In this document: positions 25,029 through 50,186 of the stretch, in pieces
Layout of the letters: every line of letters starts with the position of its first letter
Numbering within the stretch: position 1 is the stretch's first letter
Origin: a bacterium
Lineage (GTDB): Bacteria > Acidobacteriota > HRBIN11 > JAKEFK01
Direction of reading: 5' to 3'
Length of the DNA stretch: 64,000 bases
Assembly (NCBI GenBank): GCA_022616075.1
Contig: JAKEFK010000048.1
Coordinates: forward strand, 2,371 to 66,370
Made by a program: the position numbers and the translations under genes
Notes under the pieces: generated by a model
The model's input: the letters and a program-made list of their open reading frames with translations, nothing else
Told to the model about the DNA's origin: nothing
The model's database searches: none

Positions 25029-25044
25029 TGGTACAGCCCTTGCT
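25029..25044 (+). promoter_or_regulatory. sigma-54 promoter candidate TGGTACagcccTTGCT
   Basis: Matches TGGCAC-N5-TTGCW with one mismatch. Lies 25 nt upstream of the ATG at 25070, immediately downstream of the NtrC-family gene. Confidence 0.55.
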
Positions 25045-25069
25045 CGTTACAAAACAGCTTCGACAGAAA

Positions 25070-25447
25070 ATGGATAAGAAGTGTGTGCTCATTGTCGATG
25101 ATGATGAAGCGATTTTGGAAAGTCTTGCGGGACTCTTTCAGACCGATGATGTAATAGTTGAAGGAGCAAGTACTCTGGAAGAGGCAACAAAATTGCTGAG
25201 TGCTCATGCCTTTGATTTGGTGATTTTGGATCTACGTCTCTCATCGGGTGCCTCGCTGGAAGGACTTGATTTGTTATCGCTGATTAAAACGAAGGCTCCG
25301 AAAACGCATGTAGTTCTGATGACCGCGTACGGCGCACAGGAGATCGAACGCGAAGCAATAAGGAGGGGAGCGTCGAGTTATTTTGAGAAATCCATTCCCA
25401 TCAGCGAATTTAGGAACCGCCTCAAGGCTCTCGGTATTTCTGTCTAG
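25070..25447 (+). CDS. single-domain response regulator
   Basis: CVLIVDDDEA, DLVILDLRL, VVLMTAY, YFEKS. The track ORF starts at GTG 25028 but that extension would cover the sigma-54 promoter. Confidence 0.75.
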   Translation: MDKKCVLIVDDDEAILESLAGLFQTDDVIVEGASTLEEATKLLSAHAFDLVILDLRLSSGASLEGLDLLSLIKTKAPKTHVVLMTAYGAQEIEREAIRRGASSYFEKSIPISEFRNRLKALGISV

Positions 25448-25474
25448 GTTTTTATCGATCCGCGGCCGGCTGGC

Positions 25475-26020
25475 TTACGAGTGCAGCTTTGTGTAGATTC
25501 GCCGCTGCATCCGTTTTGCATCCGCGGGATCCGGACGCTCTTCAATTAATTCGGCTGCTGTAGCAGTATGAAAAGAAACGACAATCCAATGTTCGCCGGG
25601 GCCGACAACCGCCCGATGCCAGATGTTGACAGGTATGGATGCCCAGTGATCTTCAATCCGCCCATGAAACTGATCCAGCAAAACATGAGATTGCCATCGA
25701 TCTTCCGTCCAGATCTGCAAGTCTCCTGTTCGCCTCCAGGACCTGACCCGTTGATGACTGTTCGGATGGCGTTCCGCGCCGCTGTTGGAACCCTCCTTCA
25801 GTAAAAATACCCAGCTGGAGCGGATCAACTCAGGCAATTTGTTTTCGTAAATTTCCAAAGGAATGGTCTCCCATGCCAACGGATCCTGGCTCCTTTTGAA
25901 TTCATCCACAACGCGATCCGCAATCCGGTCGATCTGCGCCGACACAGAAGGGTCCTGCAGAATCCGCTCAATCGCCCGCAAGAGTTTGCGTTCTTCTTCA
26001 ATCATTTGTTCTATTGTCAA
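25475..26020 (-). CDS. hypothetical protein, possibly cupin-like
   Basis: 181-aa ORF with His-rich motifs (ERHPNSHQ, HWIVVSFHTA) reminiscent of cupin metal sites. No firm family assignment. Confidence 0.4.
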   Translation of the reverse strand: MTIEQMIEEERKLLRAIERILQDPSVSAQIDRIADRVVDEFKRSQDPLAWETIPLEIYENKLPELIRSSWVFLLKEGSNSGAERHPNSHQRVRSWRRTGDLQIWTEDRWQSHVLLDQFHGRIEDHWASIPVNIWHRAVVGPGEHWIVVSFHTATAAELIEERPDPADAKRMQRRIYTKLHS

Positions 26021-26086
26021 TTCTTTTCCATAATTAGCACAGAATCAGTGAAAAGCATTTCTGTGCATAACAGATCAGGAGGATGA

Positions 26087-26437
26087 ATGCCTGCTCCCAT
26101 CAAACCGTTGATCACTTCCGAAGAGTTACAAAGAATTGACATACGCGTCGGCACCATCGTTGCGGTTGACGAGGTGTCTTCGTCTAATAAATTAGTAAAA
26201 CTTACTGTTGAATTTGGCGACCACCGGCGAGCCATACTTGCCGGTATGAAAAAAGAGCGCGCGAATCCCAAAGAAATTGAAGGGAAACAAGCGTTATTTG
26301 TAGTGAATCTCGCTACACGAAAAATGGCCGGCGAGGTCTCGGAAGGAATGCTTTTTGACATCGGCTATGCCGATGGAATTACGCCGGTTCTCGCCCTTCC
26401 GGAGAAACTGGTGCCGGACGGAACACGAGCCGAGTAA
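26087..26437 (+). CDS. tRNA-binding protein (CsaA/Trbp111-like EMAP domain)
   Basis: IDIRVGTIVAV...KLVKLTVEFGD...EGKQALFVVNLATRKMAGEVSEGML matches the CsaA/MetG C-terminal tRNA-binding domain. Confidence 0.8.
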   Translation: MPAPIKPLITSEELQRIDIRVGTIVAVDEVSSSNKLVKLTVEFGDHRRAILAGMKKERANPKEIEGKQALFVVNLATRKMAGEVSEGMLFDIGYADGITPVLALPEKLVPDGTRAE

Positions 26438-26555
26438 CCTCATTTTTTCGCTAGAACTCGTAGCGGAAGCTATATTGTTTTCTACAACTTTTCGCGGGGG
26501 GACAACTGAATGGGATTCTCCATGATTTGAGAGTCTCGGGTCAAAGCACGTAATC

Positions 26556-28019
26556 ATGCTAACACAGAACAAACGCATCAGTCCTATCCTTGCTCCAGCC
26601 GTCGCGATCATGAACCGGCTGAAGTACCCTCAAAAGTTTGCGCTCATCAGTTTGTGTTTTGCAATTCCGCTGGCGACGGTCATGTTTTTTTTGATTTCCG
26701 AAATGAATGACCGCATTGAATTTTCTGAAAAGGAAATCATCGGTGATGCATACCTCCGCCCTTTACGGAAGCTCCTTGAACATGTCCCTTCAGCGCGAAG
26801 CCTGGCTCATTCTTACGCGAAAGGGCAAATCACGCTGCGTCCGGAATTGATTGAGCTGCAATCGATCATCGATCAGGATTTTCAGGAACTCTTATCTGCC
26901 GAAAAGCAATACGGAAAGATTCTAAATACAAGTTCCAGACTGAATGTTTTGAGCGAGAACTGGAAATTCCTGAAGAATAAGACTCTCAGTCTCGAGGCAT
27001 CGGACACCGACACGCTCTATGGCAAAGTGATCGGTGATATACGAGCGTTGGTCTCTCATGCGGGGGATACTTCCAATCTCATTCTGGATCCCGACCTTGA
27101 TAGTTACTACCTCATGGATTCAGTCCTGCTGAAACTGCCTGAAGGTGTGGATCTGGTTTCACGAACCAGTTTTTTTGCGCAATCCATTTTGGAACGCGGC
27201 TCGATGACGGCGGAAGAGAAGGCTGAGCTGATCACGTTAACGGGCTTAGTGCGTTCGAATTCAGAAGCCACACGGGCAGGTTTACAAGTAGGGTTTCGCA
27301 ACAACCCGGCGCAAAACTTGAAACCAGCCCTGGAAGAGCCGGTCCAGAATGCAGTTGCTCAAACCGAAGAGCTATTGAAAGCAATTGATGCCGAAATCCT
27401 TGACGCTCCGCAGTTGACCACGACGCAAGAGAGCCTTGAGGCACTCACTCGAAAAACGCTGGAGAAGGATTTCAGTTTGTGGGATCGCACGGTTGCAGAA
27501 CTTGATGGACTTTTGCGCACGCGAATCGATGGATTTGAGCGCAAAAAGCGATTGGTGGAAGTGATCTCCGTTCTTATGCTGGCACTCGTAGGGTATCTGC
27601 TTGTCGGTTTTTACAGAGCCGTTATGAATACTGTCTCCGGTCTGCAGGAGGCCTCCGATGCAATGATCCAGGGGAATCTTACTGGCTCCGTTTCGCTCGA
27701 AACCCGTGATGAATTGGGTCCTGTGGTGCAGTCGTTCAACAATATTGCGCGCGGATTGGTGGAAGCCAAAGAAAAATATAGGGGTATTTTTGAAAATGCA
27801 GTGGAAGGGATCTTCCAGAGCACATCCGATGGGAAATTTATCAGCGTGAATCCCGCGATGGCGCAAATCCTTGGATACAAAAACGAAGACGAAATGATCA
27901 ACAATATCTCGGCAATTTCCAATCAGCTTTACGTCGATCCAAGCAGGCGTATGGAATTCATCCGCACAATGCAGGAAGAGGGGGCCGTCACAAAATTCGA
28001 ATCCCAGGCGTACCGCAAA
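26556..28019 (+). CDS. hybrid sensor histidine kinase, N-terminal fragment (TM - periplasmic domain - TM - HAMP - start of PAS)
   Basis: Two TM segments. HAMP (LVEAKEKY coiled coil). PAS beginning [31 protein letters not shown]. The frame breaks at the A4 tract 28017-28020. Confidence 0.75.
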
Positions 28020-28020
28020 A

Positions 28021-30249
28021 GACGGCACTATGATCTGGATTTCCGAAAAGGTGCATGCCGTTTACGATGCGCAGCACAATCTACTCTATTACGAAGGGAG
28101 CATTGAGGACATCACAGAGCGGAAAGTCGCTGAGGAGGCTCTCGAACAGAAAACTGCATTATTGAAGGTCTTGCAGGAAGTAGCAGTTGCGGCAAATCAG
28201 GCTACGAATGAATTAGAAGTTCTGCAGTTCGGAATCGACCGGGTCTGTGAATTTACCAGATGGCCGGTGGGTCATGTATATATGGTGTCCAGAGGATCGG
28301 AAGGCACTCTGGCCCCGACAACGATCTGGCACCTGCCCAAGGATGGACGTTTCGATACCTTCCGAAGAGTAACCGAATCGACGCATCTAGAAAAAGGAAA
28401 AGGCCTTCCGGGCCGGGTGGCTTTGAGCGGCAAACCTGCCTGGATTATGGATGTAACAAAAGACTCCAACTTTCCGCGGGCAAAGTTCGCTGAAGACATT
28501 GGCGTTCATGGCGCCTTTGGTTTTCCGGTATTGATCGGATCTCAAGCCGTGGCAGTTATGGAATTCTTTACAGAAAAACCAGCCGAGCCGGATGAAGCTT
28601 TGTTGCAGGCAATGGCGCATATCGGTACGCAGCTTGGACGGGTCTTCGAACGCAAGCGTTCCGAAGAAGAGTTGAGGCAAGCGAAGGACCAGGCCGAAGA
28701 AGCGAATCGCTCGAAAAGCAAGTTTCTCGCGACGATGAGTCATGAATTACGGACTCCGCTGAATGCCATTATCGGATACAGCGAAATGCTTCAGGAGGAA
28801 GCCGACGATCTCGGAGTTAAAATATTTGATTCGGACCTGAAAAGAATTCACTCCGCCGGAAAACACCTGTTGACTTTGATCAATGACATCCTTGACCTTT
28901 CCAAAATTGAAGCTGGAAAGATGGAGTTGTTTCTCGAAACATTTTCACTTGCTGGTTTGATTCAGGATGTGGTGAACACAGTGCATCCGCTTGCGGAAAA
29001 AAATGGAAATAGAATCAAAGTTGAAAGTGAAAAAGATCCCGGGAGCATGCATGCTGACGTTACGCGCGTGCGACAAATTCTGTTTAACTTGATGAGCAAT
29101 GCATGCAAGTTTACAAAATCGGGAACCATCACAGTGCGGGTGAATCGAGAAATAAGAAAGAGCGGCGAGTGGTTCCGTTTCGATATTTCCGATACGGGCA
29201 TCGGAATGACTCCAGATCAGCTCGCCCGGTTGTTTGAGGCTTTTACTCAGGCTGACGCTTCCACAACCAGACAGTACGGGGGAACCGGCCTGGGTTTGGT
29301 CATTAGCCGTAAATTCTGCCATATGATGGGCGGAGACATCACTGTTCAAAGCGAACATGGCCGGGGAACAACTTTTACCGTTGAGTTACCTGTTGATGTC
29401 TCAAGTCATGGTATTCAACGAGTCCAGGTATTTGAAGAAAAAATCGCCGCGGAACCGTTGACTGCAGTTGGCAAGGAGGATTTCCGTTCTACGATATTAG
29501 TAATTGATGACGATCCGGACGCAAGAGATTTGATGTCGCGAGTCCTTTTCCGGGAGGGATTTCGTCCAGTGCTTGCTTCTTCGGGAGAACAGGGATTGTT
29601 TCTTGCCCGGGAATTGCGCCCGAAGGTGGTTATCCTGGACGTTTTAATGCCGGTGATGGACGGTTCGACGGTACTCACGGAAATGAAAGCGGATCCGGAA
29701 CTTGCAGATATTCCGGTCATCATGGTAACGATGGTCGATAACAAGGAGTTGGGCTATGCTCTCGGAGTAAGTGACTACTTGAGCAAGCCCGTGGACCGGG
29801 AACGGCTTGCTTGTGTGTTGCGGAGATTCAGCTGCCCGAATCCACCTTGTCCGGTGCTCGTTGTTGAAGACGATGAAGAAACCCGCGACATTTTCAAACG
29901 CGCATTGGAGAAAGAAGGCTGGAGTGTCGCTGTTGCGGAAAACGGCCGCGTCGGACTTGCCCGGGTATCCGAACAGATTCCGGAATTGATCCTTCTGGAT
30001 CTCATGATGCCGGAAATGGACGGCTTTGAGTTTGTGACAGAGTTGCGAAAAAACGAAGCCTGGCGCCAGATCCCGTTGATTGTTGTTACGGCCAAAGATT
30101 TGACGCAAGATGACCGCAACCGGCTAAATGGATACGTTCAGTCCATCTTGCAGAAGGGGGACTACACCAAAGATGGGCTGATGCAAGAACTAAGAAGCTT
30201 GCTTGCCGCCTGTGTTCGCGAAAGCGCTGGAAAAGAACGCACTACGTAA
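28021..30249 (+). CDS. hybrid sensor histidine kinase, C-terminal fragment (end of PAS - GAF - HisKA - HATPase_c - REC - REC)
   Basis: The +1 frame continues [17 protein letters not shown] (PAS core), then GAF, H-box [18 protein letters not shown]-box [13 protein letters not shown], and two receiver domains ([18 protein letters not shown] and [18 protein letters not shown]). Confidence 0.8.
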
Positions 30250-30277
30250 CGACTACTATCTGGTTTGAGGTAATTTT

Positions 30278-30616
30278 TTGGACGAAGAATTATCATCAGA
30301 AGAGCTGAATGTTATTCTTATTGAAAATCAGCCTGAAATCATTTCAAAGGTTCATTCACTGCTCACGGAAATCAAAGAATGCCGGCTGAAAGTTCATTCT
30401 TCACATCACGAACTGGGAAGGCAAGTAGAAGCAGAACTTCCAGACCTCGTTTTACTTGCTCATGCCGAAAATGCCCCTCAAATAGTGTCGGAGATTCGTG
30501 AACGATCTCCTGATACGTACGTGGTCATCCTCCTGCCTGCGATTCAGGAAGACCTGGTTAATGAATACATTAATCGCAGAGCTCACGGACTTTTGTTCAA
30601 GAATCAGAATTTTTAA
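30278..30616 (+). CDS. degenerate (pseudo-)receiver domain protein
   Basis: REC-like fold signature, but the acidic pair is EN (VILIEN) and the phospho-acceptor position reads DLVLLAHAEN, where Ala replaces Asp. Confidence 0.5.
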   Translation: MDEELSSEELNVILIENQPEIISKVHSLLTEIKECRLKVHSSHHELGRQVEAELPDLVLLAHAENAPQIVSEIRERSPDTYVVILLPAIQEDLVNEYINRRAHGLLFKNQNF

Positions 30617-30723
30617 GGCGATTTCATTTCGACAATGAAGAAAGCTTTTGCCCGAATTGTGGAACGCAAGTCTTCCTTGCTGAATTCTTTAAGCAAAGTT
30701 CTTTTTTCGCAAGTAATCGCGAA

Positions 30724-32046
30724 ATGGAACGGCTTTTGATGAATGTCAAGACACTCCAGCCTGGCCAAACGATCATGCATTACAAGATTGTTGAGTCTCT
30801 CGGTGAAGCTGGAATGGGTGAGGTGTATCGCGCGGAGGATCAAAAGCTGCGACGCCAGGTTGCTATTAAAGTTTTGTCTGTGCCTGTAATGCGCGATCAA
30901 ACTGCCCGAACCAGATTGATGCGTGAAGCAATCGCAGCGTCCGCTTTAAACCATCCGAATATCATCACAATTTATGCAATTGAAGAAGTCAATGATGTCT
31001 CGTTTATCGTCATGGAATTCGTTGAAGGGAAAAGCCTCTACCGGATCCTGAAACGAGGGCCGTTGCAGTTTGAGCAAATCATTGACGTTGGAGCAAAAGT
31101 TGCTGACGCTCTTTCGGCCGCTCACTCGATCGGATTGATTCACCGGGACATCAAACCGGGAAACATCATGATTACTGCCGGGGGAAATGTGAAGCTGCTG
31201 GATTTTGGCCTCGCCAAATGTATGCCGAATGTCGGACAGGATTTTTCGACAGATCCGCTTTTCGCCAGCACGCTCACAACGATGGGCTCGCCAGTAGGAA
31301 CGATCAATTACATGTCGCCTGAACAAACACGGGGGGAATCACTGGATACGCGAACTGATATTTTTTCTTTGGGAAGCGTGCTTTACGAAGCGGCAACTGC
31401 CAAATCCCCCTTCCGGGGCGCAAGCATTCTTGAATTATTCCATGAAATTGCTACTGCTGAGACAAAAGCACCCAGCAGTATCGTCTCCACTATTCCTCAA
31501 TCATTTGATGCGCTCATTTCACGCGCAATGGCTAAAAAGCCGGAAGACCGCATTGCGACTGCTGCTGAATTCTCCGAAACATTGAAGAAGCTGCTCCATT
31601 CTGAGCTGGTTCATTCGCGAGAACCATCGCACGAAATTCCGACAATCAAGCAATCCGCATCAGCAACCGGAGAAACAATCTTTCTTGTAGAAGACAATGA
31701 AGACAACCGGGACATGCTAACACGCAGATTGAAACGTAAAGGCTACGAGGTACTTATCGCTGTCAACGGAAGAGATGCTCTGGATCGCATTCCCGTTGAA
31801 CGACCTGACCTGATTCTAATGGACATCAGTTTGCCGCTGGTGGATGGCATTGAAGTGAGTCGCAGGTTGAAGAATTCCGATGCTACAAAGGACATCCCCA
31901 TCATCGCGCTTACGGCTCATGCAATGGCGGGCGACCGTGAAAAAGCGCTGGCTGCCGGATGCGACGACTACGATACAAAACCTGTCGATTTTGAAAGACT
32001 GCTGAACAAGGTCTTGCGCTCACTGGAAAAGAAAAAAGCGAAATAG
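30724..32046 (+). CDS. Ser/Thr protein kinase fused to a C-terminal receiver domain
   Basis: Hanks kinase motifs GEAGMGEVY, AIK, HRDIKPGN, DFGLAK, SPE. C-terminal REC has an intact TIFLVEDNED, DLILMDISLP, ALTAH and DYDTKP. Confidence 0.85.
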   Translation: MERLLMNVKTLQPGQTIMHYKIVESLGEAGMGEVYRAEDQKLRRQVAIKVLSVPVMRDQTARTRLMREAIAASALNHPNIITIYAIEEVNDVSFIVMEFVEGKSLYRILKRGPLQFEQIIDVGAKVADALSAAHSIGLIHRDIKPGNIMITAGGNVKLLDFGLAKCMPNVGQDFSTDPLFASTLTTMGSPVGTINYMSPEQTRGESLDTRTDIFSLGSVLYEAATAKSPFRGASILELFHEIATAETKAPSSIVSTIPQSFDALISRAMAKKPEDRIATAAEFSETLKKLLHSELVHSREPSHEIPTIKQSASATGETIFLVEDNEDNRDMLTRRLKRKGYEVLIAVNGRDALDRIPVERPDLILMDISLPLVDGIEVSRRLKNSDATKDIPIIALTAHAMAGDREKALAAGCDDYDTKPVDFERLLNKVLRSLEKKKAK

Positions 32047-32053
32047 CCGGCGT

Positions 32054-32458
32054 TCATTCACCTATCCTTGGAAGATTGATGTCGAGTTGAAGCGTCCATT
32101 TCCATTTACCGTTGACACCTTCGTCGTTGAACCAAACAGGGCCGGTCAAGAGGCTAATGTCCCTGGTAAAGAAAACGTAGAGGCCGAATCCGCCGCCTCC
32201 AAACGCGTTATTTCCCGATGCATAATCGCCCGCGAAAACCAATCTGTTAAACTCATTTCCCGCTGAGTCTTTTACCGGCATAAAGCCCCGGTCAAAAGCA
32301 ATCTCAAACCCTTTATTTTCTTTCTCTCCATCACTGCTGAGCAGAACATCACCATTGCCAATGTACGGGCCGGCCGAGATCCGGCCAACATTTGGAAACA
32401 CTTTTCCTACCACCAGATGAACAATATTTTGATTGGTCACACCGCTCTCAGTTCCCAC
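32054..32458 (-). CDS. outer-membrane beta-barrel protein, C-terminal part (same frame as 32486-32866, separated by an in-frame TAG)
   Basis: Alternating amphipathic beta-strand pattern, Gly/aromatic rich, ends ..WTLQLDINLPRIGE. Confidence 0.55.
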   Translation of the reverse strand: MGTESGVTNQNIVHLVVGKVFPNVGRISAGPYIGNGDVLLSSDGEKENKGFEIAFDRGFMPVKDSAGNEFNRLVFAGDYASGNNAFGGGGFGLYVFFTRDISLLTGPVWFNDEGVNGKWKWTLQLDINLPRIGE

Positions 32459-32485
32459 ATTGAAAATCCCCAGTTGGATGGCTGG

Positions 32486-32866
32486 CTACCCTTCAAACAG
32501 CGCATCTGCAGGTGTACCAATCCTGGCGTTAAACAAGAGTGGATGATCGCTTGGTTCCAAGAAATCGAAACCAACTTCCATTTGGAGTTTTTCAAATGGA
32601 AGAATCCCCACTGTCAGACCATAATCCGTTGGAAAATCTCCGCCTCCATCCGAAGCATCGCGAAAAACAGTAAAGTAGCTGTCGTAAGTAATATGAAATA
32701 CTTTGTACGACTGAATATCCAAGGTCATCGGAGTCCAGTAAGTGGTCGACGGCGTCGCATAACTTATGGATCCGAAAGAGACGAAGGCAACAAAAGCCAC
32801 CAGAAAAACTGTCCATCTAATCTTCATATTGGGACATATTTTAGCCCCCATCATCTTCGGCCACAA
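32486..32866 (-). CDS. outer-membrane beta-barrel protein, N-terminal part with signal peptide
   Basis: Signal peptide MKIRWTVFLVAFVAFVSFGSISYA. TAG at 32486-32488 on the minus strand. The downstream ORF is in the same frame. Confidence 0.55.
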   Translation of the reverse strand: MWPKMMGAKICPNMKIRWTVFLVAFVAFVSFGSISYATPSTTYWTPMTLDIQSYKVFHITYDSYFTVFRDASDGGGDFPTDYGLTVGILPFEKLQMEVGFDFLEPSDHPLLFNARIGTPADALFEG

Positions 32867-32872
32867 GGGTAT

Positions 32873-35344: not shown

Positions 35345-35389
35345 ATCATATTCAAGAGGCTAGAGGGCAGCCTTCCAGGCTGCATTACG

Positions 35390-35462: not shown

Positions 35463-35464
35463 AG

Positions 35465-36400: not shown

Positions 36401-36407
36401 TTTGATC

Positions 36408-38754: not shown

Positions 38755-38818
38755 ATTCTAGAATGTGTTAAAACACTTCCTTGAAAGGACGCAATATATT
38801 ATCATTTGACGCTTCTTC

Positions 38819-40624: not shown

Positions 40625-41310
40625 TGGAAACTGTCGAATTCAAAAAATCAGTCGCTCGTGAGTATTTTGAAGCGATTGTACTCGCCGTTGTCCTTGCATT
40701 ATTTTTTCGGACCTTTGTTGTAGAAGCGTTTAAGATACCCAGCAGCTCCATGGAAGACAATCTGTTGATTGGCGATCACATACTAGTGAACAAGTTTGCT
40801 TACGCGCCAACGATGTTTAATTGGGAGAAAAAGATTTTGCCGATCAGGAACGTGAGCCGGACTGATGTAATTGTTTTCAAATATCCGGAAGACCCTGGCC
40901 GGAATTTCATTAAGAGAGTTATCGCTGTTGAGAACGAAGAAATCGAAATTCGGAACCGCCAGGTCCTTATTAACAGTAAACCGATTGAAGAACCGTACAA
41001 AGTGCATAAATCCGATTTACAGCCGGATCTTGTAGGAATTGTCAGTGATGATTTTGGACCCAAAAAGGTCGGAAAAGGTCTTTATTTTGCCATGGGAGAT
41101 AACCGCGACAACAGCAAAGATAGTCGCGCGTGGGGACTTGTGCCGAAGGATTTTATAAAAGGGAGAGCTTTCATTGTTTACTGGTCATTTGACGGACCGC
41201 AAAACATTGGACCATCCACCATGGGAGAAAATCTGCGGCACATTGCGCATATCGTTGTGAATTTTATTCCAGACACGCGGTGGGAACGCTTCTTCAAAAT
41301 CATCCGGTGA
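40624..41310 (+). CDS. lepB: signal peptidase I
   Basis: TM, then the SSM catalytic Ser motif (IPSSSMEDNL), K box (RVIAVENEE) and GDNRDNSKDSR box. ATG overlaps the lepA stop (TAATG). Confidence 0.9.
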   Translation: METVEFKKSVAREYFEAIVLAVVLALFFRTFVVEAFKIPSSSMEDNLLIGDHILVNKFAYAPTMFNWEKKILPIRNVSRTDVIVFKYPEDPGRNFIKRVIAVENEEIEIRNRQVLINSKPIEEPYKVHKSDLQPDLVGIVSDDFGPKKVGKGLYFAMGDNRDNSKDSRAWGLVPKDFIKGRAFIVYWSFDGPQNIGPSTMGENLRHIAHIVVNFIPDTRWERFFKIIR

Positions 41311-42248: not shown

Positions 42249-42289
42249 TGGACGCACAGTAAGCAAATATTGTAGAATGGGGCGCTTTT

Positions 42290-42343
42290 GTAGCGCGGAC
42301 GTCTCGTCTGCGCGCAGTTCCGCAGGCGGGACGCCCGCGCTAC
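42290..42343. repeat. family-1 palindromic repeat, copy 5
   Basis: gtagcgcggacgtctcgtctgcgcgcagttccgcaggcgggacgcccgcgctac. Confidence 0.8.
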
Positions 42344-42361
42344 TTTGCGAGTTGTTTAGTT

Positions 42362-43333
42362 ATGAAGATTGCTGAAAATTTACTGGACTTGATCGGCAAC
42401 ACGCCGCTCGTTTATTTAAACAAAGTTGTTCCAGCTTCCGGCGCCCGGATCGCGGCAAAACTGGAATTCTTTAACCCGTGCGGTTCTGTCAAAGATCGCA
42501 TAGGACTTCACATGGTTCGGGATGCCGTCCAAAGAGGCGCGCTGAAGCCAGGCGGAACCATCATAGAACCGACTTCAGGTAACACCGGTCTCGGCCTTGC
42601 TATGGTTGCAAATATCCTGGGTTACAAGATGATCGCAGTCATGCCGGACAAAGTTCCTGTGGAGAAGATTCGTTTACTCGAAGCATACGGAGTGGAATGC
42701 GTCATTTGTCCCACCGATGTGGATCCCACAGATCCCAGATCCTATTACGAGACGTCCAATCGATTAAACCGGGAAATCCCAAATTCCTTCTTACCGCAGC
42801 AATATTACAACCCGAAAAATCCGGACGCTCATTATCAAACGACAGGCCCCGAAATCTGGCGCGATACGGATGGAAAACTGGATGCATTCGTCGCCGGTTG
42901 TGGAACCGGTGGAACCATTACAGGAACCGCCAGGTTCTTGAAAGAAAAAAATCCCGGCGTGCGAGTTGTGGGCATCGATACGGTTGGCTCCGTAATTAAA
43001 GGCTACTTCGAAACGGGAAAAATTGAAGGCTATCATCCTTACTTGATTGATGGAATCGGCGAAGATTTTATCCCAGGCGCTTACAATTTCGAATACATTG
43101 ATGAAATCATTCAAGTTCCGGATAAAGAAGCGTATGAAATCACCATGCGTCTGGCGAAAGAGGAAAGCATTTTTGTCGGCTCTTCAGGTGGAGCAGCCGT
43201 TGCGGGAGCAATACATGTTGCTGAAAGGATGAAACCGGAACAGCTTGTTGTGGTGATCCTACCGGATACCGGAACCAGGTATCTTTCCAAACTCAACCAG
43301 GAATGGTTGCGCTCCAAACACCTCGTTGATTAG
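42362..43333 (+). CDS. cysteine synthase / O-acetylserine sulfhydrylase family PLP enzyme
   Basis: LEFFNPCGSVKDRIG PLP-lysine motif, TSGNTG, and GTGGTITG glycine loop. Confidence 0.85.
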   Translation: MKIAENLLDLIGNTPLVYLNKVVPASGARIAAKLEFFNPCGSVKDRIGLHMVRDAVQRGALKPGGTIIEPTSGNTGLGLAMVANILGYKMIAVMPDKVPVEKIRLLEAYGVECVICPTDVDPTDPRSYYETSNRLNREIPNSFLPQQYYNPKNPDAHYQTTGPEIWRDTDGKLDAFVAGCGTGGTITGTARFLKEKNPGVRVVGIDTVGSVIKGYFETGKIEGYHPYLIDGIGEDFIPGAYNFEYIDEIIQVPDKEAYEITMRLAKEESIFVGSSGGAAVAGAIHVAERMKPEQLVVVILPDTGTRYLSKLNQEWLRSKHLVD

Positions 43334-44144
43334 AATTTTTGCCCGTGTTGTTTCGCTAATTGCGCTGTTACTCTGCGTAGCAACCGCTTCTGCCGAACCG
43401 AAGAGGATTGTTTCCATCGCTCCCAGCTTCACTGAGATTCTTTACGCTCTGGGCGCCGGCCCGCAGATCGTCGGCACAACCCTTTATTGCGACTATCCCG
43501 CCGAAGCAACGAAAACCGAAAAAATTGGAGACGTGCTGAATCCCAATGTGGAAAAAATTATTTCTTTGAAACCGGACATAGTATTCGCCGGAAATTGGAA
43601 ATGGAATGTGCCTGAAAAGTTACGAGCCGCAGGCATTCTGGTTGTAGAGGTTCCGGATGCCCAGACTCTTGATGATGTTTTTCAGCGATTCAATCTGATA
43701 GCCGGCAAGATCAACCGGCTCCCTGCTGCCACACAATTGATCGCAACCATGAAACAACAGATGGAAGAAATTCGGAAGCGAGCCGCTGCCAAACCACAGC
43801 GCACTGTATACATGGAGATTGATGCCGGCAATTGGACAGTTGGAGGCCAATCTTACCTCACAGAAATTTTGAAAGTCCTGGGTCTTCGAAACGTCTTTGG
43901 TGAACGGCAGGAACCTTATCTAACCGTTACGATGGAATCGGTCGTTGCCAGAAATCCCGATCTGCTGATGTCTCTCAGCCGCACGCAAGAAGAGTATCAG
44001 AGCCTGGCGGCTTGGCGGGCTTTGCGCGCTGTTCGCGAAGGTAAGATCATTGACAAGAATGCGATTGATTGGAATGCTATCACTCATCAGGGATCCCGTT
44101 TGATCGAAGGGATCCAGCAACTGGATTCACTGCTGAACAAGTAA
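43326..44144 (+). CDS. ABC transporter periplasmic substrate-binding protein, BtuF/FecB class
   Basis: Signal peptide. KRIVSIAPSFTEILYALGAGPQIVG and LKPDIVFA motifs. TTG start overlapping the upstream stop. Confidence 0.8.
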   Translation: MIRIFARVVSLIALLLCVATASAEPKRIVSIAPSFTEILYALGAGPQIVGTTLYCDYPAEATKTEKIGDVLNPNVEKIISLKPDIVFAGNWKWNVPEKLRAAGILVVEVPDAQTLDDVFQRFNLIAGKINRLPAATQLIATMKQQMEEIRKRAAAKPQRTVYMEIDAGNWTVGGQSYLTEILKVLGLRNVFGERQEPYLTVTMESVVARNPDLLMSLSRTQEEYQSLAAWRALRAVREGKIIDKNAIDWNAITHQGSRLIEGIQQLDSLLNK

Positions 44145-44180
44145 ACTATTTTTAACAGAAGAACGCAAAGATCAAGAAAA

Positions 44181-44230
44181 GTAGCGCGGGCGTCCCGCCT
44201 GCGAACGCTACGCAGACGAGACGTCCGCGT
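44181..44230. repeat. family-1 palindromic repeat, copy 6 (inverted, 3' end degenerate)
   Basis: gtagcgcgggcgtcccgcctgcgaacgctacgcagacgagacgtccgcg. Confidence 0.7.
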
Positions 44231-44266
44231 TCCTTCGCGTCCTTCGCGATCTTCTGTTCAAAAAAA

Positions 44267-45019
44267 ATGCGAATCATCAGTTTGGTGCCATCGATAACCG
44301 AAACACTGTTCGAACTGGGTCTGGGTGATCAGATCGTAGCCGTCACCCGGTGGTGCACCAGACCAGCAGAAAAGGTTATCCATAAACCAAAAGTTGGTGG
44401 AACCAAGAATCCAAAACTGCAATCCATACTTGAATTCAAGCCTGATATTGTCATTTTGGATTGCGACGAAAACCGCAAAGAAGATGCCAAGGCGTTGGAG
44501 AAAAACAAGATCCGCACCTTTACAGTCTTTCCAAAAACGATTGACGATTCTATTCACATGATCCGGCAGCTGGGTGAGTTGTTTTCCGTGCAGCCCGCAG
44601 CTGCTGCAATGACTGAGGAGATTCAAAAGCTGCGAGAAGCATACAAGCCCGATCGTATCTATGAAAGCCTGATTCTGATCTGGCGCAAACCATACATGAC
44701 AATCAACGCTGATACTTATGTTCACTCTGCCTGCGAGCTTTTTGGATTTCGCAATGTTTTTGCTTCCCATCAAAAACGATATCCGCCGTTAACGCCGGAA
44801 GAAATCGAGCAGATCGATCCGGAAATGATTCTTTTTCCTGACGAACCTTATCCATTTCGACGCAAACATCTGGATCTCTTCCAACAAGAGTTTCCTGGTA
44901 TAAGAGCCGTGAGCAACGGTCAGATGTTCCTCTTTGACGGCAGCCACGTCGCCTGGCATGGCTTCGGGACATTGCGGGCCTTGCGCGAATTTCCGCTACA
45001 ATTTCTTAACAAAAAATGA
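44267..45019 (+). CDS. second leaderless periplasmic-binding-protein-fold (cobalamin-binding-like) protein
   Basis: MRIISLVPSITETLFELGLGDQIVAVT and LEFKPDIVIL motifs. No signal peptide. Paralogous to 37846-38754. Confidence 0.7.
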   Translation: MRIISLVPSITETLFELGLGDQIVAVTRWCTRPAEKVIHKPKVGGTKNPKLQSILEFKPDIVILDCDENRKEDAKALEKNKIRTFTVFPKTIDDSIHMIRQLGELFSVQPAAAAMTEEIQKLREAYKPDRIYESLILIWRKPYMTINADTYVHSACELFGFRNVFASHQKRYPPLTPEEIEQIDPEMILFPDEPYPFRRKHLDLFQQEFPGIRAVSNGQMFLFDGSHVAWHGFGTLRALREFPLQFLNKK

Positions 45020-45966
45020 GCGGACATTTCGTTCGATGGATGTTTACGTTAGCTCTGTTGCTTGTGATCACATTTGCTGCTTCTCTATGGATTGGTGAAG
45101 TCCGCGAATGGAATCCCGCTGTGGTTTTCAACATCCGTTTGCCGCGCGCGCTGCTTGGACTCGTCGTTGGAATCGCGCTGGCAACTGCCGGTGCAGTTTA
45201 TCAGGGATTGTTGCGAAATCCTCTTGCTGATCCGTACATTCTGGGAACTTCAAGCGCTGGAACTTTCGGAGCTCTGGTTGCAACGATTCTGAATTTTCAT
45301 TTCCAATATACGCTTTATATTTTTTCAATTGGCGCCTGCTTCCTGAGCATGTTGCTTGTGTACCGCATCGCCACAACACACGGACGAACTCCCATCCAAA
45401 CGCTCATACTGGCAGGCGTTGTCTCCAGCACTTTCTTCAGCGCGCTCGTTCTGCTCTTATTCACACTATTCCGGCGCGAATCCTTTTCCGTTCTATTCTT
45501 CATGCTGGGTTCTCTTTCAATCGCGGGCACAGGTTGGTCGATTGTGGTTTCGGGTTCGCTGGTCCTGGTAGGTCTGCTGATCGCGCTTTTTTATGCGCGA
45601 GACCTCGATGCGATGAGCGGTGGAGAAGAAGATGCAATTCATCTCGGCATCAAAGTTGAGACGACCAAGCAAATCCTTTTCTTCTCCTCTTCCCTTCTGG
45701 TAGGCGCAAGTGTTGCCCTGGCAGGCTCCATCGGATTTGTCGGTTTGATCATTCCTCATATTCTTCGTTTGTTGGTCGGACCATCGCACCGCAAATTGAT
45801 TCTCGCAAGCGCCATCGGTGGCGCATTCTTCCTGGTGTTGATGGACATTCTGTCGCGAACGATTTTTTCTCCCGTGGAAATTCCGGTCGGCGTTTTTACT
45901 TCCCTTTGCGGCGCGCCCTTCTTTATCTTTCTCTTAAAAAAGAAACAAAAGGAACTGGTGTATTAA
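45016..45966 (+). CDS. FecCD-family ABC transporter permease (BtuC-like)
   Basis: About 9 TM helices. Conserved LLRNPLADPYILGTSSGA region. Confidence 0.9.
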   Translation: MSGHFVRWMFTLALLLVITFAASLWIGEVREWNPAVVFNIRLPRALLGLVVGIALATAGAVYQGLLRNPLADPYILGTSSAGTFGALVATILNFHFQYTLYIFSIGACFLSMLLVYRIATTHGRTPIQTLILAGVVSSTFFSALVLLLFTLFRRESFSVLFFMLGSLSIAGTGWSIVVSGSLVLVGLLIALFYARDLDAMSGGEEDAIHLGIKVETTKQILFFSSSLLVGASVALAGSIGFVGLIIPHILRLLVGPSHRKLILASAIGGAFFLVLMDILSRTIFSPVEIPVGVFTSLCGAPFFIFLLKKKQKELVY

Positions 45967-46754
45967 TGATTTCTGCTCAGGACGTCGGTTTCGGTTATGA
46001 CGGCTCGTTTCATCTTCAGAATATTTCATTTGAAATGTCGAAAGGCGCCTTCTGGGGTGTCATTGGTCCGAATGGCTCCGGAAAATCCACGCTGTTAAAA
46101 ATCCTGAGCAAAGTGATCCAAGCGCAGCAAGGTACGATCAAAATTGACGGACAGCCCTTGAAAACATTCGCATTAACGGAACTCGCCAGAAGGATGGCTG
46201 TAGTTGGAAGCGAGGCTCAGTTTTCCTATCCATACCACGTTCAAGATGTTGTCCTTATGGGCCGCATACCTTTTGTGGGTAGACTCGGCATTCATTCCCA
46301 ACGGGATCATCAGATCGTTGATTCTGTGTTGCGCAAAACGGAAACGTGGGCCTACCGCAACCGCTACATTCACGAGCTTTCCAGCGGTGAACGCCAACGC
46401 GTACTACTTGCGCGAGCGCTGGCTCAGGAACCACGCGTGCTTTTGCTGGATGAACCCACCGCGCACCTCGATCTCCATTATGAAATCGAAATCTTCCAGA
46501 TCCTAAAAGCATTGAACGCTGAGGAAAGTCTCACCATCCTGACCGTTTCTCATAACCTGAACTTGATGGCCGAGTTCTGCGAAAAACTGATCCTCATGCA
46601 AGGAGGCCTCTGCCACCAGATCGGCACACCTGCTGAAATCCTGACTGCTTCATTGCTTCGTGATGTTTTTCGAATCGATTGCAAGATCGAAAAAAATCCC
46701 TTCTCTCAGGCACCGGCAATTCTTTTGAACACACGCATTGACAACCGCAACTGA
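45966..46754 (+). CDS. ABC transporter ATP-binding protein (BtuD/FecE-like)
   Basis: GPNGSGKSTLLK Walker A, LSSGERQRV signature, LLLDEPTAHLD Walker B. ATG overlaps the permease stop. Confidence 0.9.
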   Translation: MISAQDVGFGYDGSFHLQNISFEMSKGAFWGVIGPNGSGKSTLLKILSKVIQAQQGTIKIDGQPLKTFALTELARRMAVVGSEAQFSYPYHVQDVVLMGRIPFVGRLGIHSQRDHQIVDSVLRKTETWAYRNRYIHELSSGERQRVLLARALAQEPRVLLLDEPTAHLDLHYEIEIFQILKALNAEESLTILTVSHNLNLMAEFCEKLILMQGGLCHQIGTPAEILTASLLRDVFRIDCKIEKNPFSQAPAILLNTRIDNRN

Positions 46755-46873
46755 TAGAACGGTGAATGTCCGGAGTTCGCACACCGTTGTGTGAAATTCG
46801 TACAAGTCCTTCAAAAACTCTCTCACTGATTTCCTCACCTTAGCTCGTCAGAATCGAGGCCTTTTCAGACTGC

Positions 46874-46888
46874 TGGCGAATATCTTGC
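46874..46888 (+). promoter_or_regulatory. sigma-54-like promoter candidate TGGCGAatatcTTGCG
   Basis: GG/GC spacing of 12 nt, about 30 nt upstream of the ATG at 46919. Strong RBS aaggagg at 46906-46912. Confidence 0.35.
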
Positions 46889-46918
46889 GTTAGATCAGCC
46901 CTTAAGAAGGAGGAACCT

Positions 46919-48214
46919 ATGAATTCAAATTTAACCAAACTGGCTCGCACAAATTGGCAAATCATATGGATGATAACTTTTGCTTTTTTTGTCAGCCTAT
47001 TATCCTCAATTCCGGCTGATGCGGCTTTTCCGGGAGCCAATGGCAAAATCGCGTTTGAGAGCCGCGATCTGGTTGGGGGAGTTTTCCAGGTTTACGTGAT
47101 GGATGCGGACGGCTCGAATGTGACGCGTCTGACTGATGCAGCAAGTAACGAACGGCCAGCCTGGTCTCCGGACGGCGCCAAAATTGCGTTTGTAAGTAGT
47201 CGCGATGCAGGCGGTGAGATCTATATCATGAACGCCGATGGCTCCAATCAAACGCGTCTTACCAATACTCCTGCAAGCAGCGAACTGTTCCCCTCCTGGT
47301 CGGCGGACGGCAGTAAGATCACCTTTGAAAGCGATCGAGATGGAAATTTTGAAATTTACGTAATGAATGCCGATGGAACCAATCAGACCCGCATTACCAA
47401 TGACCCGGCTTTCGATGCCTTTCCCGCGTGGTCGCCCGATGGAACCAAGATTGCCTTTACAAGCGAGCGAGATGGGAACAGAGAAATCTACGTTATGAAT
47501 ACGGATGGCACAAACCAGACGAATCTCACGAACAATCCTGCGAACGAAGAAGATTCCGATTGGTCGCCCGATGGAAGCAAGATCCTTTTTACCAGCGATC
47601 GAACTCTCGTCTTTACCGTATTTGTCATGGATTCTGATGGATCAAACCAGACACCGCTTACGGATTCCGGATTAGCGGATTCATCAGGTGTATTCTCTCC
47701 CGATGGCACGAAGATCGCTTTTCTTAGCGCTCGGACTGGGAACGTTGATATATTCAGCATGGATGCGGACGGAACAAATCCGATCAACTTAACCAACAAT
47801 TCTGATTACGACATAAATCCAGACTGGCAGCCGCTTCCCAATTTCAATTGCCCTCATCCGAAGGGATTTTGGAAAGAAGATCCATCTGCCTGGCCGGTGT
47901 CCTTCCTCACTTTAGGAAGCCAGCTTTACACCAGCGCCGAGCTGCTTTCCATTCTGAATAGTCCGATTCGCGGTGATGCAAGCTTGATCCTGGCGCACCA
48001 GTTGATCTCTGCCAAATTGAATATCGCAAACGGTTCCAACCCGGCTCCTGTAAGCCTAGCAATATCGGATGCGGATAGTCTGCTCTCCTCTTTCTTCGGC
48101 AAGTTGCCCTACGATGTCAGGCCGTCAACAGCAACCGGAAGGGCTTTGAAAGATGCAGCGGATACGCTTTCGAACTATAACCAGGGCGAGTTAACGCCAG
48201 GGTGCGAACCATAA
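46919..48214 (+). CDS. secreted TolB-like beta-propeller (PD40 repeat) protein with extra C-terminal domain
   Basis: Signal/TM peptide. Seven or more repeats of the form ..SPDGSKIAF.S.RDG..EIYVMNADGSNQTRLTN. Confidence 0.8.
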   Translation: MNSNLTKLARTNWQIIWMITFAFFVSLLSSIPADAAFPGANGKIAFESRDLVGGVFQVYVMDADGSNVTRLTDAASNERPAWSPDGAKIAFVSSRDAGGEIYIMNADGSNQTRLTNTPASSELFPSWSADGSKITFESDRDGNFEIYVMNADGTNQTRITNDPAFDAFPAWSPDGTKIAFTSERDGNREIYVMNTDGTNQTNLTNNPANEEDSDWSPDGSKILFTSDRTLVFTVFVMDSDGSNQTPLTDSGLADSSGVFSPDGTKIAFLSARTGNVDIFSMDADGTNPINLTNNSDYDINPDWQPLPNFNCPHPKGFWKEDPSAWPVSFLTLGSQLYTSAELLSILNSPIRGDASLILAHQLISAKLNIANGSNPAPVSLAISDADSLLSSFFGKLPYDVRPSTATGRALKDAADTLSNYNQGELTPGCEP

Positions 48215-48427
48215 CACATTGACAAGCGGTACTAACTCGATAGGTTATTCCGGGGGCGATTCAGGAACTCATTGACGCGTTAAAAACCTTGTAGTGGCAG
48301 AGCATTTACTCGCCCTTAGTTTGATCGTGCTACTTTAGGATTGATTAAATTCTTTTGAATATGCGCATGCGATGGTAACGAGTACTCGACACAAGACCAT
48401 TTACATAAAGAGGAGAACAGCGGGCGC

Positions 48428-49420
48428 TTAATTGTCGTGCGCTAAAACAACCGGTAGTAGCTTCTTGGCGACATAATCATGTCCTGTAGCGTTCAGGTGC
48501 CACACATCATAGGCAAAAAACCTCGGTTGCCGCTTCTCATCCTTGAAACTTTGGAGTAGATCAATGCCTTTAATATGCTCTTTTGACAGAAATTTGCCAA
48601 CCGCCTGGTGAAGTTTCCAGTGTGGGTAATTGTTAAAATCCTTTTCTGTCATCTTGAATACGGGAAGTAAGACAATCATAAAGTCGATATTTTTTTTCTG
48701 TAACAAAGTTGACATTTCCTTGATTGCCCGGAAGACGGCATCCTTGTTTCTGCCATACGAGTACTCGTAGTATTCAAAAATGATCGGCCAGATCGCATTT
48801 CGAATATCAGTCCATAAGAAACTATTTGGTCTTTTGAAATACAAAACCTTTTTCGCTGACGCGAACTCGAAGTCGAAGTCATTTAAATGCATGACATAAA
48901 CGACCGAATCAGGTTGCAAACTTAGAACTTTTGTCTTTAACAGTTCGAGAAGCTGGACCGCATGATATCCATCTATAGCGCAATTCAGTGATTCCACTGA
49001 TCCGTTTCGGTATTGATTGTTTGCATAATATTCGAACTTGCTAACAAAAGTTTCATCATTTTGAACGAATAAGCCCACTGTGGCTGAGTCGCCAAGAAAC
49101 GCCACTCGCTTCGTGTTTTGTTTCTTGACAGACAGATCTCTGTCCACACCTCGAAAACCATAGCGATTTGTGGTCATCGTATAACCAAACGTTAAAGCCG
49201 TGTATTGGCTGTTTGGACGGTATTCCCACATCAATATTTCATTATTCGACGGGACGGTTAACGTTCCCTTCCAGTCACCTTGAAGCTGATAGTATGCTCT
49301 CCAGCGATCGTATTGCCTACCCCTCCATACCTCGTAAATAGTGATTACCATAATGAACGTAAACAGCGTGCCGAAAATCGCGAGACTACCTTTGGCCCGC
49401 CAGGTATCTTTAAGTGGCAT
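48428..49420 (-). CDS. membrane-anchored SGNH/GDSL-family hydrolase
   Basis: N-terminal TM. RVAFLGDSATVG block I with catalytic Ser. C-terminal D..H (WHLNATGHDY). Markedly AT-rich compared with its neighbours. Confidence 0.7.
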   Translation of the reverse strand: MPLKDTWRAKGSLAIFGTLFTFIMVITIYEVWRGRQYDRWRAYYQLQGDWKGTLTVPSNNEILMWEYRPNSQYTALTFGYTMTTNRYGFRGVDRDLSVKKQNTKRVAFLGDSATVGLFVQNDETFVSKFEYYANNQYRNGSVESLNCAIDGYHAVQLLELLKTKVLSLQPDSVVYVMHLNDFDFEFASAKKVLYFKRPNSFLWTDIRNAIWPIIFEYYEYSYGRNKDAVFRAIKEMSTLLQKKNIDFMIVLLPVFKMTEKDFNNYPHWKLHQAVGKFLSKEHIKGIDLLQSFKDEKRQPRFFAYDVWHLNATGHDYVAKKLLPVVLAHDN

Positions 49421-49496
49421 ATTAACCGGAACAAAGTTTACGCATTGACAACCGTAATCAAGTCGATTAGCTTATCCATCTTTATTGGAGGAAATA

Positions 49497-49952
49497 ATGC
49501 CTATCGAAGTTGGACAACCTGCACCGGATTTTACTTTAAAAGATCAAAATCAAAAAGAAGTATCATTAAAAGATTTGCGCGGAAAGAACGTGGTTTTAGC
49601 GTTCTATCCCTTAGACTTCAGCCCCGTATGCAGCAAAGAACACGCATGCTTTCACGATGACTTCAGCCAATTCAAAGGACTCAACGCGGAAATTCTTGGA
49701 ATCAGCGTGGATAGCGCCTGGACTCACAAAGCTTTTGCCGAAAAACTAGGAATCGAATATCCATTGCTTGCCGATTTCCATCCAAAAGGAGCAGTAGCCC
49801 AGAAATTCGGCCTCTATCTTGGAGAAAAAGGCATCACAAATCGCGCAACCGTAATCGTGGATAAAGAAGGAATCGTTCGTTACGTCAATGTTTATGACAT
49901 TCCGCAACAGCGAGCGAATCAGGAGCTCATCGACGCATTAAAAGGTTTGTGA
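49497..49952 (+). CDS. peroxiredoxin (AhpC/TSA, Bcp/PrxQ-like)
   Basis: FYPLDFSPVCSKE peroxidatic Cys motif. RBS ggagga 5-10 nt upstream. Track ORF starts at TTG 49485. Confidence 0.85.
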   Translation: MPIEVGQPAPDFTLKDQNQKEVSLKDLRGKNVVLAFYPLDFSPVCSKEHACFHDDFSQFKGLNAEILGISVDSAWTHKAFAEKLGIEYPLLADFHPKGAVAQKFGLYLGEKGITNRATVIVDKEGIVRYVNVYDIPQQRANQELIDALKGL

Positions 49953-49993
49953 TTTTTTCCAGCCAGAGGCGCAAACCGTCCTAAAGTTCAGAT

Positions 49994-50067
49994 GGGGCGC
50001 GGACTTCAGTCCGCAAAAACTTGTGAGCGCAAAAACCACTTTGCGGGCAAGGATGCCCGCGCTCCCA
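49994..50067. repeat. family-3 palindromic repeat core (GGRGCGCGGACTTCAGTCCGCAAAAAC...TTTGCGGGCAAGGATGCCCGCGCTCCCAC), without TIRs
   Basis: About 85% identical to the core inside the MITE at 63794-63867. Confidence 0.75.
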
Positions 50068-50170
50068 CACGAACCGCAGCATTAGTATTCCTGCACGGTC
50101 GTGTAAGCAATCCGGTCATCGCTGTACGGATTCCTTACAAAAACAACTCGCCTCCTCGTCGATTCAAAAA

Positions 50171-50186
50171 TGGTACAGCTTTTGCT
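50171..50186 (+). promoter_or_regulatory. sigma-54 promoter candidate TGGTACagcttTTGCT
   Basis: Identical at 14 of 16 positions to the element at 25029-25044. Lies 25 nt upstream of the ATG at 50212. Confidence 0.55.

Follow-up and report, generated by a model that had tools for sequence, protein, structure and literature searches.

A stretch of 64,000 nucleotides (nt) of bacterial DNA (contig JAKEFK010000048.1 of assembly GCA_022616075.1, referred to here as the window and numbered from its first letter) appears to hold three sigma-54-dependent promoters, designated P1, P2 and P3, which would belong to at least two regulatory circuits. A probability of about 0.75 is assigned to this reading. 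P1 precedes the gene of a stand-alone receiver protein immediately downstream of an NtrC-family activator gene, P2 precedes an operon that opens with a secreted beta-helix protein, and P3, on the opposite strand, precedes the gene of a secreted protein of 192 amino acids (aa) (Table 1). The near-identical motifs of P1 and P2, which the initial annotation had interpreted as sigma-54 promoters, display all the sequence properties of such elements, and P1 is conserved in nine orthologous loci. That interpretation appears to be right in its main point, both motifs being very probably real sigma-54 promoters. We infer transcription from all three sites.

Sequence elements and their statistics

Both 16-nt motifs are found on the plus strand where they had been reported, and they constitute the only matches to TGGYAC-N5-TTGCW (TGGYACNNNNNTTGCW) in the 64 kb, where 0.05 matches are expected and none of 100 shuffles reached two. 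Their cores are identical at 14 of 16 positions, and the respective start codons, ATG 25070 and ATG 50212, each follow exactly 25 nt after the end of the motif. The looser patterns TGG-N8-TTGCW and GG-N9-TGCW are not enriched in the window, which indicates that the signal resides in the full extended consensus.

Every position of both strands has also been scored with a generic -24/-12 weight matrix, our own approximation of the published consensus, cross-checked against 29 Salmonella sites obtained by chromatin immunoprecipitation (PMC3844500). Among the 128,000 positions, the three highest scores were those of P2 (17.5, at 50171), P1 (16.7, at 25029) and P3 (15.6), and the three scores of at least 15.5 compare with 0.31 in dinucleotide shuffles. 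All three elements lie within non-coding DNA, which makes up about 9% of the window, with a start codon 25 (P2 and P1) or 33 nt (P3) downstream, and all fit a GG and a GC exactly 10 nt apart within a TGGCAC-N5-TTGCW-type element. The minus-strand site 20322-20337 (P3) had been listed among the weaker candidates; as the third-best match in the window it is stronger than had been claimed, and P3 is judged fairly likely to be a functional sigma-54 promoter, with a predicted transcription start near 20311 (minus strand).

A different outcome was obtained for the site upstream of the TolB-like gene, likewise proposed as a weaker candidate. Its GG/GC spacing is right and its score is only 8.6, a value reached by about 40 sites of the window and for which approximately one chance match is expected among the promoter-proximal positions. 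Nothing speaks for it except a TGT-N11-ACA palindrome at 46767-46783, 113 nt upstream of its -12 C, and the site cannot be told from chance by its score.

Conservation of the P1 element

The most informative evidence concerns P1. Nine loci containing orthologues of the NtrC-type activator (61-67% identical), totalling 86 kb, were fetched and compared. A -24/-12 element is present directly 3' of the activator gene and just before the next gene in all nine, with scores of 14.3-18.0 in eight of them and 11.4 in locus L167. The elements read TGGTATGGTCTTTGCT, TGGTATGCCTCTTGCT, TGGCAGGTGTTTTGCT, TGGCAAAGGATTTGCT, TGGCACACTATTTGCA, TGGCACAGGGTTTGCA, TGGTACAAGCTTTGCT and CGGCACGCCGTTTGCA, with a weaker CGGCACGCCGGTTGCC. 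When the sites are aligned on the motif, high information content is confined to the GG, A(-22) and TTGC positions and the flanks are unrelated. Only 11 positions in the 86 kb reach a score of 13.5, eight of which are the P1-equivalent spot, while a negative control of 76 metagenomic regions upstream of beta-helix homologues gave one match of at least 12. This pattern constitutes a clear phylogenetic footprint of a predicted sigma-54 promoter, and P1 is considered highly likely to be functional, with a predicted transcription start at about 25055, 15 nt ahead of ATG 25070. Retention of the element while the flanks diverge was seen for P1 only; orthologous loci of moderate divergence were not found for P2 or P3.

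The gene that follows the activator is an orthologue of the stand-alone receiver in seven of the nine loci and another gene in two. The kinase partner is more variable, with a Reg_prop/Y_Y_Y kinase in five loci (L164, L166, L167, L171 and L173), a GAF-PAS kinase in two, a short kinase in one and no adjacent kinase in one. A scan with the E. coli consensus detected no sigma-70-like promoter near P1 or P2. Similarly, no RNA element was found in the P1 or P2 spacer, and Rfam gave no matches in the window.

Two additional features have been observed in these loci. In L172, a second strong -24/-12 element (TGGTATGCGCTTTGCT, 6240-6255, plus strand, score 16.7) lies 36 nt before a 324-aa gene located two genes downstream of the activator orthologue. 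In L167, the activator-receiver spacer (6408-6640) contains a tandem duplication of about 130 bp (ccggttttcatcgttcgttctgtttgcccacggaacacgcgaaccacccgaaaagaagatcaaaaa...).

Table 1. Positions of the candidate promoters, upstream repeats and associated genes in the window.
Feature	Position	Strand	Description
P1	25029-25044	+	sigma-54 -24/-12 element TGGTACAGCCCTTGCT; GG 25030-31, GC 25042-43
P2	50171-50186	+	sigma-54-type element TGGTACAGCTTTTGCT; GC 50184-85
P3	20337-20322	-	sigma-54-type element CGGTACGGATTTTGCT; GC 20324-23; ATG 20288 lies 33 nt downstream
TolB-gene candidate	46874-46889	+	TGGCGAATATCTTGCG; 29 nt before the TolB-like gene; weak
Putative P1 activator site	24959-24985		TGGAACA-agg-TGTTCCG-ttaaa-GAACA
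Putative P3 activator site	20380-20407		GGAACA-N5-TGTTCC (20391-20407) and TGTTCCATTTGGAAACA (20396-20380, minus strand)
P2 upstream inverted repeat	50102-50139		TGTAAGCAATCCG-N12-CGGATTCCTTACA; 13-nt arms, 12/13 complementary
Secreted 192-aa protein gene (P3 product)	19710-20288	-	uncharacterised family; predicted beta-sandwich
Sensor histidine kinase	20453-23608	+	periplasmic Reg_prop beta-propeller and Y_Y_Y domain (Pfam)
NtrC-family response-regulator enhancer-binding protein	23577-24920	+	REC, AAA+ sigma-54 interaction and Fis-type helix-turn-helix domains; GSFTGA loop
Stand-alone CheY-like receiver, 125 aa (P1 product)	25070-25447	+	Pfam Response_reg
Secreted NosD-like beta-helix protein	50212-50970	+	signal peptide; first gene of the predicted P2 operon
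Orphan secreted 312-aa protein	50967-51905	+	overlaps the beta-helix gene by 4 nt
Ser/Thr kinase with TPR repeats	51930-55091	+	24-nt gap after the 312-aa gene
GAF-type enhancer-binding protein	55174-56685	-	GAF, AAA+ and helix-turn-helix domains; GAFTGA loop; convergent with the P2 operon

Activators and upstream repeats

The gene assignments of the initial annotation, including those of the two enhancer-binding proteins, were upheld by Pfam. Both activators possess full sigma-54 interaction domains with intact contact loops, and the GSFTGA variant of the loop is present in working Desulfovibrio activators (PMC4641369). Neither protein reaches an equivalog cut-off in NCBIfam: the NtrC-type protein scores 386 against 559 for NtrC, 380 against 714 for AtoC and 360 against 760 for ZraR, and the best family match of the GAF-type protein is NifA (366 against 529). 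The cut-offs of NtrX and of the PEP-CTERM regulator are likewise not reached, and both proteins are family members at the Pfam level only. The kinase and NtrC-type activator genes overlap, and they are for that reason taken as one operon, from which P3 is directed divergently. No rpoN gene is present among the genes of the window.

Upstream of P1, the 17-bp palindrome TGTTCCGTTAAAGAACA (24969-24985) is centred 66 nt from the -12 C, and TGTTCCATTTGGAAACA is centred 65 nt from the -12 C of P3, so that both promoters carry a TGTTC-N7-(G/A)AACA palindrome at almost the same distance. When all 5-mers of the five closest activator-receiver spacers were counted without prior selection, GAACA/TGTTC ranked first, with 12 occurrences against 1.3 expected (0 of 5000 shuffles), and it was the only 5-mer present in all five. 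The pattern GGAAC-N(3-9)-GTTCC has three copies in the window, where 0.55 would be expected, and two of these are centred exactly 76 nt upstream of a -12 C, at P1 (24960-24974) and at P3 (20391-20407). The 5-N7-5 geometry, with related arms, was detected in six orthologous spacers. Because P3 shares the TGTTC-N7-GAACA-type palindrome of P1 at 65-66 nt, the NtrC-type system would drive both genes that flank it, and it is considered somewhat probable that its activator serves P1 as well as P3.

Within a subclade of the activator orthologues, other upstream palindromes with the same 17-bp geometry have been found, namely TGTCTG-N5-CGGACA and TGTCTC-N5-GAGACA (L166, 6512-6551; L167, 6671-6687; L171, 4426-4466; L173, approximately 4370-4450). 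Apparently, the architecture stayed while the activator drifted in its half-site specificity.

P2 is preceded by a repeat of another kind. Its inverted repeat includes TGTACGGATTCCTTACA, whose centre precedes the -12 C by 54 nt, and a repeat as long was obtained in two of 300 shuffles; no further copies of the repeat arm occur in the window. The repeats differ, being GAACA/TGTTC at P1 and P3 and TGTAAG...CTTACA at P2, and no GAACA/TGTTC site exists in the region upstream of P2 (49953-50170), for which reason a different activator is likely for this promoter. The same difference between the repeats argues for at least two circuits instead of one regulon. The GAF-type activator is a tentative candidate for serving P2. 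The four intergenic TGTnn-N7-nnACA palindromes of the window each precede one of the four candidate promoters, by 54-113 nt. Activator sites of sigma-54 promoters are usually palindromes located 70-150 bp ahead of the transcription start; relative to the predicted starts, the putative sites, chosen after seeing the data, are at about -78 (P1 and P3) and -66 (P2).

P2 and the products of P2 and P3

The predicted P2 operon spans 50212-55091 on the plus strand, and its predicted transcription start, at about 50197, falls just ahead of an AAGGAG ribosome-binding site and of ATG 50212. Homologues of its first gene have been used as a control, in which 80 genomic and 80 metagenomic loci provided about 97 usable gene starts whose upstream regions were scanned. 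A single match of at least 12 was obtained, at another distance, and sigma-54 control across the beta-helix family was accordingly rejected. Neither the 312-aa protein nor the kinase has a homologue in any of the 160 loci, and an exact look-up of the window's own beta-helix protein found nothing. The 312-aa protein has no Pfam or NCBIfam family, and its sole match in 5.8 billion proteins is itself, from near-identical metagenome-assembled genomes (MAGs). Its single-sequence AlphaFold model, with a predicted local distance difference test (pLDDT) score of 39, is unusable.

Proteins of the beta-helix family (about 250-310 aa; loci L001-L160) are widespread in Acidobacteriota, Gamma- and Betaproteobacteria and others. 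They share a conserved mature N-terminus, ETVNCT, and two invariant cysteines, and they have no conserved gene partner.

Nested GC-rich palindromes (GCGGACT-tc-AGTCCGC and GCGGGCA-agga-TGCCCGC) are located at 49990-50070 on the plus strand, between an AhpC/TSA gene and the P2 repeat. They are followed by no T-run and their fold is no better than that of shuffles (z = -1.5). They may represent a T-less terminator or protein-binding sites.

The P3 product belongs to a family with 426 representative relatives (E <= 1e-3) and two nearly invariant cysteines, and it has no Pfam or NCBIfam match. Its AlphaFold model is a confident beta-sandwich (pLDDT 88.9) that resembles known structures only weakly, most of the matches being carbohydrate-binding modules (template-modelling scores of 0.35-0.54).

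Contrary evidence and alternative explanations

Several observations weigh against the proposal of three promoters in at least two circuits. With a matrix trained on the Salmonella sites, P2 (14.5) and P1 (10.4) both score below the training minimum of 15.6, P1 being marked down for a T at -23 that is absent from the Salmonella set. A P2-like motif is absent upstream of the approximately 97 beta-helix homologues (35-53% identical, several phyla), and since these lack P2 and the 312-aa gene lacks relatives, a footprint of P2 is impossible. Proximity is the one link between the GAF-type activator and P2. Concerning the upstream repeats, TGT-N11-ACA is a pattern defined post hoc and is not enriched window-wide (6 vs 7.5). 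The arms GGAACA and TGTTCC are not equally far apart at P1 and P3, the difference being 2 bp. The arrangement of the half-sites is not constant among the orthologues, and the loci L163, L172 and L173 do not have the 17-bp palindrome. A weak terminator-like hairpin was also scored at the P1 palindrome.

The low Salmonella score of P1 can be accounted for. The T at -23, where enterobacteria have C, also occurs in the orthologous sites of L161, L163 and L172. The nifH promoter of K. pneumoniae has TGGTAT. Given that P1 is conserved and that three orthologous sites share this T, the comparison shows a lineage difference in the presumed sigma-54 core and not a weakness of P1. A T tolerated at -23 would also mean that enterobacterial matrices under-score real sites.

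The most serious alternative is that P2 is a chance or non-functional match whose operon uses an unrecognised housekeeping-type promoter, with only P1 being real. The absence of the motif from all of the first-gene homologue loci and the score below the Salmonella training range are both in line with this explanation, as is the fact that the operon and an identical P2 are shared only by near-identical genomes (approximately 99-100%), which are uninformative for a footprint. On the other hand, P2 has the top score of all positions, in non-coding DNA and in the correct orientation, with its start just before a ribosome-binding site, and its pattern is expected only 0.05 times per window. Furthermore, a significant inverted repeat is present at enhancer distance, the E. 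coli consensus scan found no sigma-70-like site in its place, and an activator gene adjoins the operon. A chance match is for these reasons regarded as unlikely, and P2 is probably a functional sigma-54 promoter. As comparative support is absent, it is a lineage-specific promoter prediction, drawn from statistics, position and context.

A single local regulon, in which the NtrC-type protein would drive P1, P2, P3 and the TolB-gene candidate, is considered improbable. The near-identity of the P1 and P2 cores could be taken to favour it, as could the TGT-N11-ACA palindromes found 54-113 nt upstream of all four candidates; however, the core is recognised by sigma-54 itself and not by the activator, and near-identical cores are therefore uninformative on a common activator. 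Besides the missing GAACA/TGTTC site upstream of P2, the inner bases of the palindromes differ (TGTAC/TGTAA vs TGTTC), a second activator gene is found beside the P2 operon, and the core at the TolB gene scores at chance level. At least two circuits are therefore favoured over the local sigma-54 regulon of secreted proteins put forward in the initial annotation: P2 and P3 would both drive secreted proteins, but the repeats differ and the product of P1 is cytoplasmic.

It has also been considered that the GAACA/TGTTC repeats 3' of the activator gene might act at the transcript level, for instance by forming hairpins that terminate or attenuate transcription of the kinase-activator operon. The sequence GTGTTCCGTTAAAGAACAC, followed by GTTTTCC, did score as terminator-like and lies 48 nt past the activator stop codon, yet its stem comprises just 6 pairs and its T-run is poor. 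Moreover, the same half-sites are present upstream of P3, where no gene ends, and in the orthologues they are 7-37 nt apart or form direct repeats unable to fold into a hairpin. This makes transcript-level elements very unlikely, and the repeats are better read as putative activator sites.

The remaining alternative, that a 139-aa receiver starts at GTG 25028 and the P1 motif is simply part of its coding region, agrees with the GenBank entries MCI0417138.1 and MCI0602187.1 and with an open frame that reaches back to 25028 (N-terminal stretch VVQPLLVTKQLRQK), but it is hardly tenable, given that another gene call yields 125 aa, that all eight orthologous receivers begin M-x(2-4)-(V/I)LI(V/I)DD in alignment with ATG 25070 and none has the 14-aa extension, and that the DNA upstream of this ATG is kept at the promoter positions (GG, TTGC) without a codon pattern. 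Judged from these orthologues, GTG 25028 is the wrong start, as had been proposed, and ATG 25070 the true one. The database receiver is 14 residues too long, with a wrong start that hides the promoter inside a "gene".

Proposed circuits

In the first of the proposed circuits, the Reg_prop/Y_Y_Y kinase would phosphorylate the NtrC-type activator, which would bind sites of the TGTTC-N7-GAACA type whose centres precede the -12 C by 65-66 nt. Through DNA looping and ATP hydrolysis, the sigma-54 holoenzyme could then open at the two promoters that flank the activator's own operon, with P3 driving the secreted beta-sandwich protein and P1 the receiver. The receiver possesses all the phospho-acceptor residues, is 50-56% identical to its orthologues and shares 37% identity with the activator's own receiver domain. 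In view of this last resemblance, its most likely mode of action would be competition for the phosphoryl groups of the same kinase, as an inducible phosphate sink or connector that provides feedback. A role as a feedback element is possible, although it is put forward tentatively. In the second circuit, a different activator, for which the GAF-type protein is the nearest candidate, would bind the TGTAAG...CTTACA repeat at 50102-50139, and P2 would drive the genes of both secreted proteins (beta-helix and orphan) and probably that of the Ser/Thr kinase with TPR repeats. We infer the activator-promoter pairings and the role of the receiver from the arrangement of sites and genes.

A more far-reaching proposal, speculative and on balance doubtful, is that the succession of activator gene, sigma-54 promoter and receiver gene forms a conserved module of Acidobacteriota-like soil bacteria, which would travel with different kinases and use the induced receiver as a phosphate sink or connector in autoregulated, sigma-54-gated feedback. 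Here the module would also control a secreted carbohydrate-binding-like protein, and it could be glycan-responsive by means of the Reg_prop/Y_Y_Y propeller.

Comparison with known systems

The arrangement is one of ordinary, textbook sigma-54 control, and nothing in it departs from known logic. NtrC binds sites of the type TGCACC-N5-GGTGCA, and NifA sites of the type TGT-N10-ACA. The window resembles systems of the NtrB-NtrC type in the REC-AAA+-Fis-type helix-turn-helix order of the activator, in its GAFTGA-type loop and in the palindromes found tens of bp upstream of a GG-N10-GC element. In contrast to NtrC and NifA, the putative half-site is TGTTC/GAACA (TGT-N11-ACA) and is closer to the promoter, at about -78 from the predicted start. 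The scores below the NtrC, AtoC and NifA equivalog cut-offs also set the window's activators apart, and no nitrogen-metabolism gene is nearby in the window.

A further likeness is found with ZraS-ZraR and zraP of E. coli and Salmonella, where a divergent sigma-54 promoter likewise serves a gene for a small secreted or periplasmic protein beside those of a kinase and an NtrC-family activator, and where activator sites occupy the shared intergenic region (putative in the window). Sigma-54 sites of Salmonella zraP and hydH are listed in PMC3844500. Nonetheless, the activator of the window is not a ZraR orthologue, having less than half of the score required (360 bits vs 760), and its sensor contains a Reg_prop/Y_Y_Y propeller instead of the ZraS periplasmic domain. 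In addition, no sigma-54 element in the window faces the kinase operon itself, and the second target, the downstream stand-alone receiver, has no Zra counterpart.

The activator regulons of Desulfovibrio vulgaris have been reconstructed by comparative genomics (PMC4641369). There, numerous two-component and GAF-type activators are each responsible for one or a few operons beside their own gene, and the promoter consensus, tGGcacg / tTGCt, is like that of the window. D. vulgaris belongs to another phylum, whereas the relatives of the window are Acidobacteriota MAGs, and the accessible text of that study does not present an activator and a sigma-54-driven single-domain receiver as a conserved pair. 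Sigma-54 has also been described as a "controller of the bacterial exterior" (Francke et al., 2011; PMC3162934). Secreted proteins would be the products of two of the window's three good promoters, in agreement with this theme, but what it describes is a statistical trend and no defined system, and the P1 product is cytoplasmic.

The window belongs to a MAG with locus tag L0156_04300, to which the assemblies GCA_022615055.1 and GCA_975752425.1 are near-identical, and it is most closely related to MAGs of Acidobacteriota. Experiments have so far revealed almost nothing of how these uncultured Acidobacteriota-like bacteria regulate transcription, and the present result provides for them a testable wiring diagram of promoters, putative enhancer sites and activators. 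A conserved activator-promoter-receiver module could hold modest general interest for the design of feedback in two-component systems.

Other sites and genes

The next matrix matches, at 3064 and 47704 on the plus strand and at 44489 on the minus strand, are inside genes and were not retained, being probably chance matches or no promoters at all. The first of these (TGGCATGTCTTTAGCT, 3064-3079, score 14.8) is antisense within a receiver gene (2950-3405, minus strand) and precedes a GAF histidine kinase gene (3423-5525) by 343 nt; it is probably due to chance. The second (TGGCACGAAGATCGCT, 47704-47719, plus strand) is a sense-oriented sigma-54-like site inside the TolB-like gene, and it ranks first with the Salmonella matrix (17.1, within the training range).

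Further signalling genes have been observed. A protein with a Ser/Thr kinase domain and, fused at its C-terminus, a receiver domain is encoded at 30724-32046 on the plus strand, in the neighbourhood of a PAS protein (26556-28106) and of a GAF hybrid kinase with two receiver domains (28030-30249).

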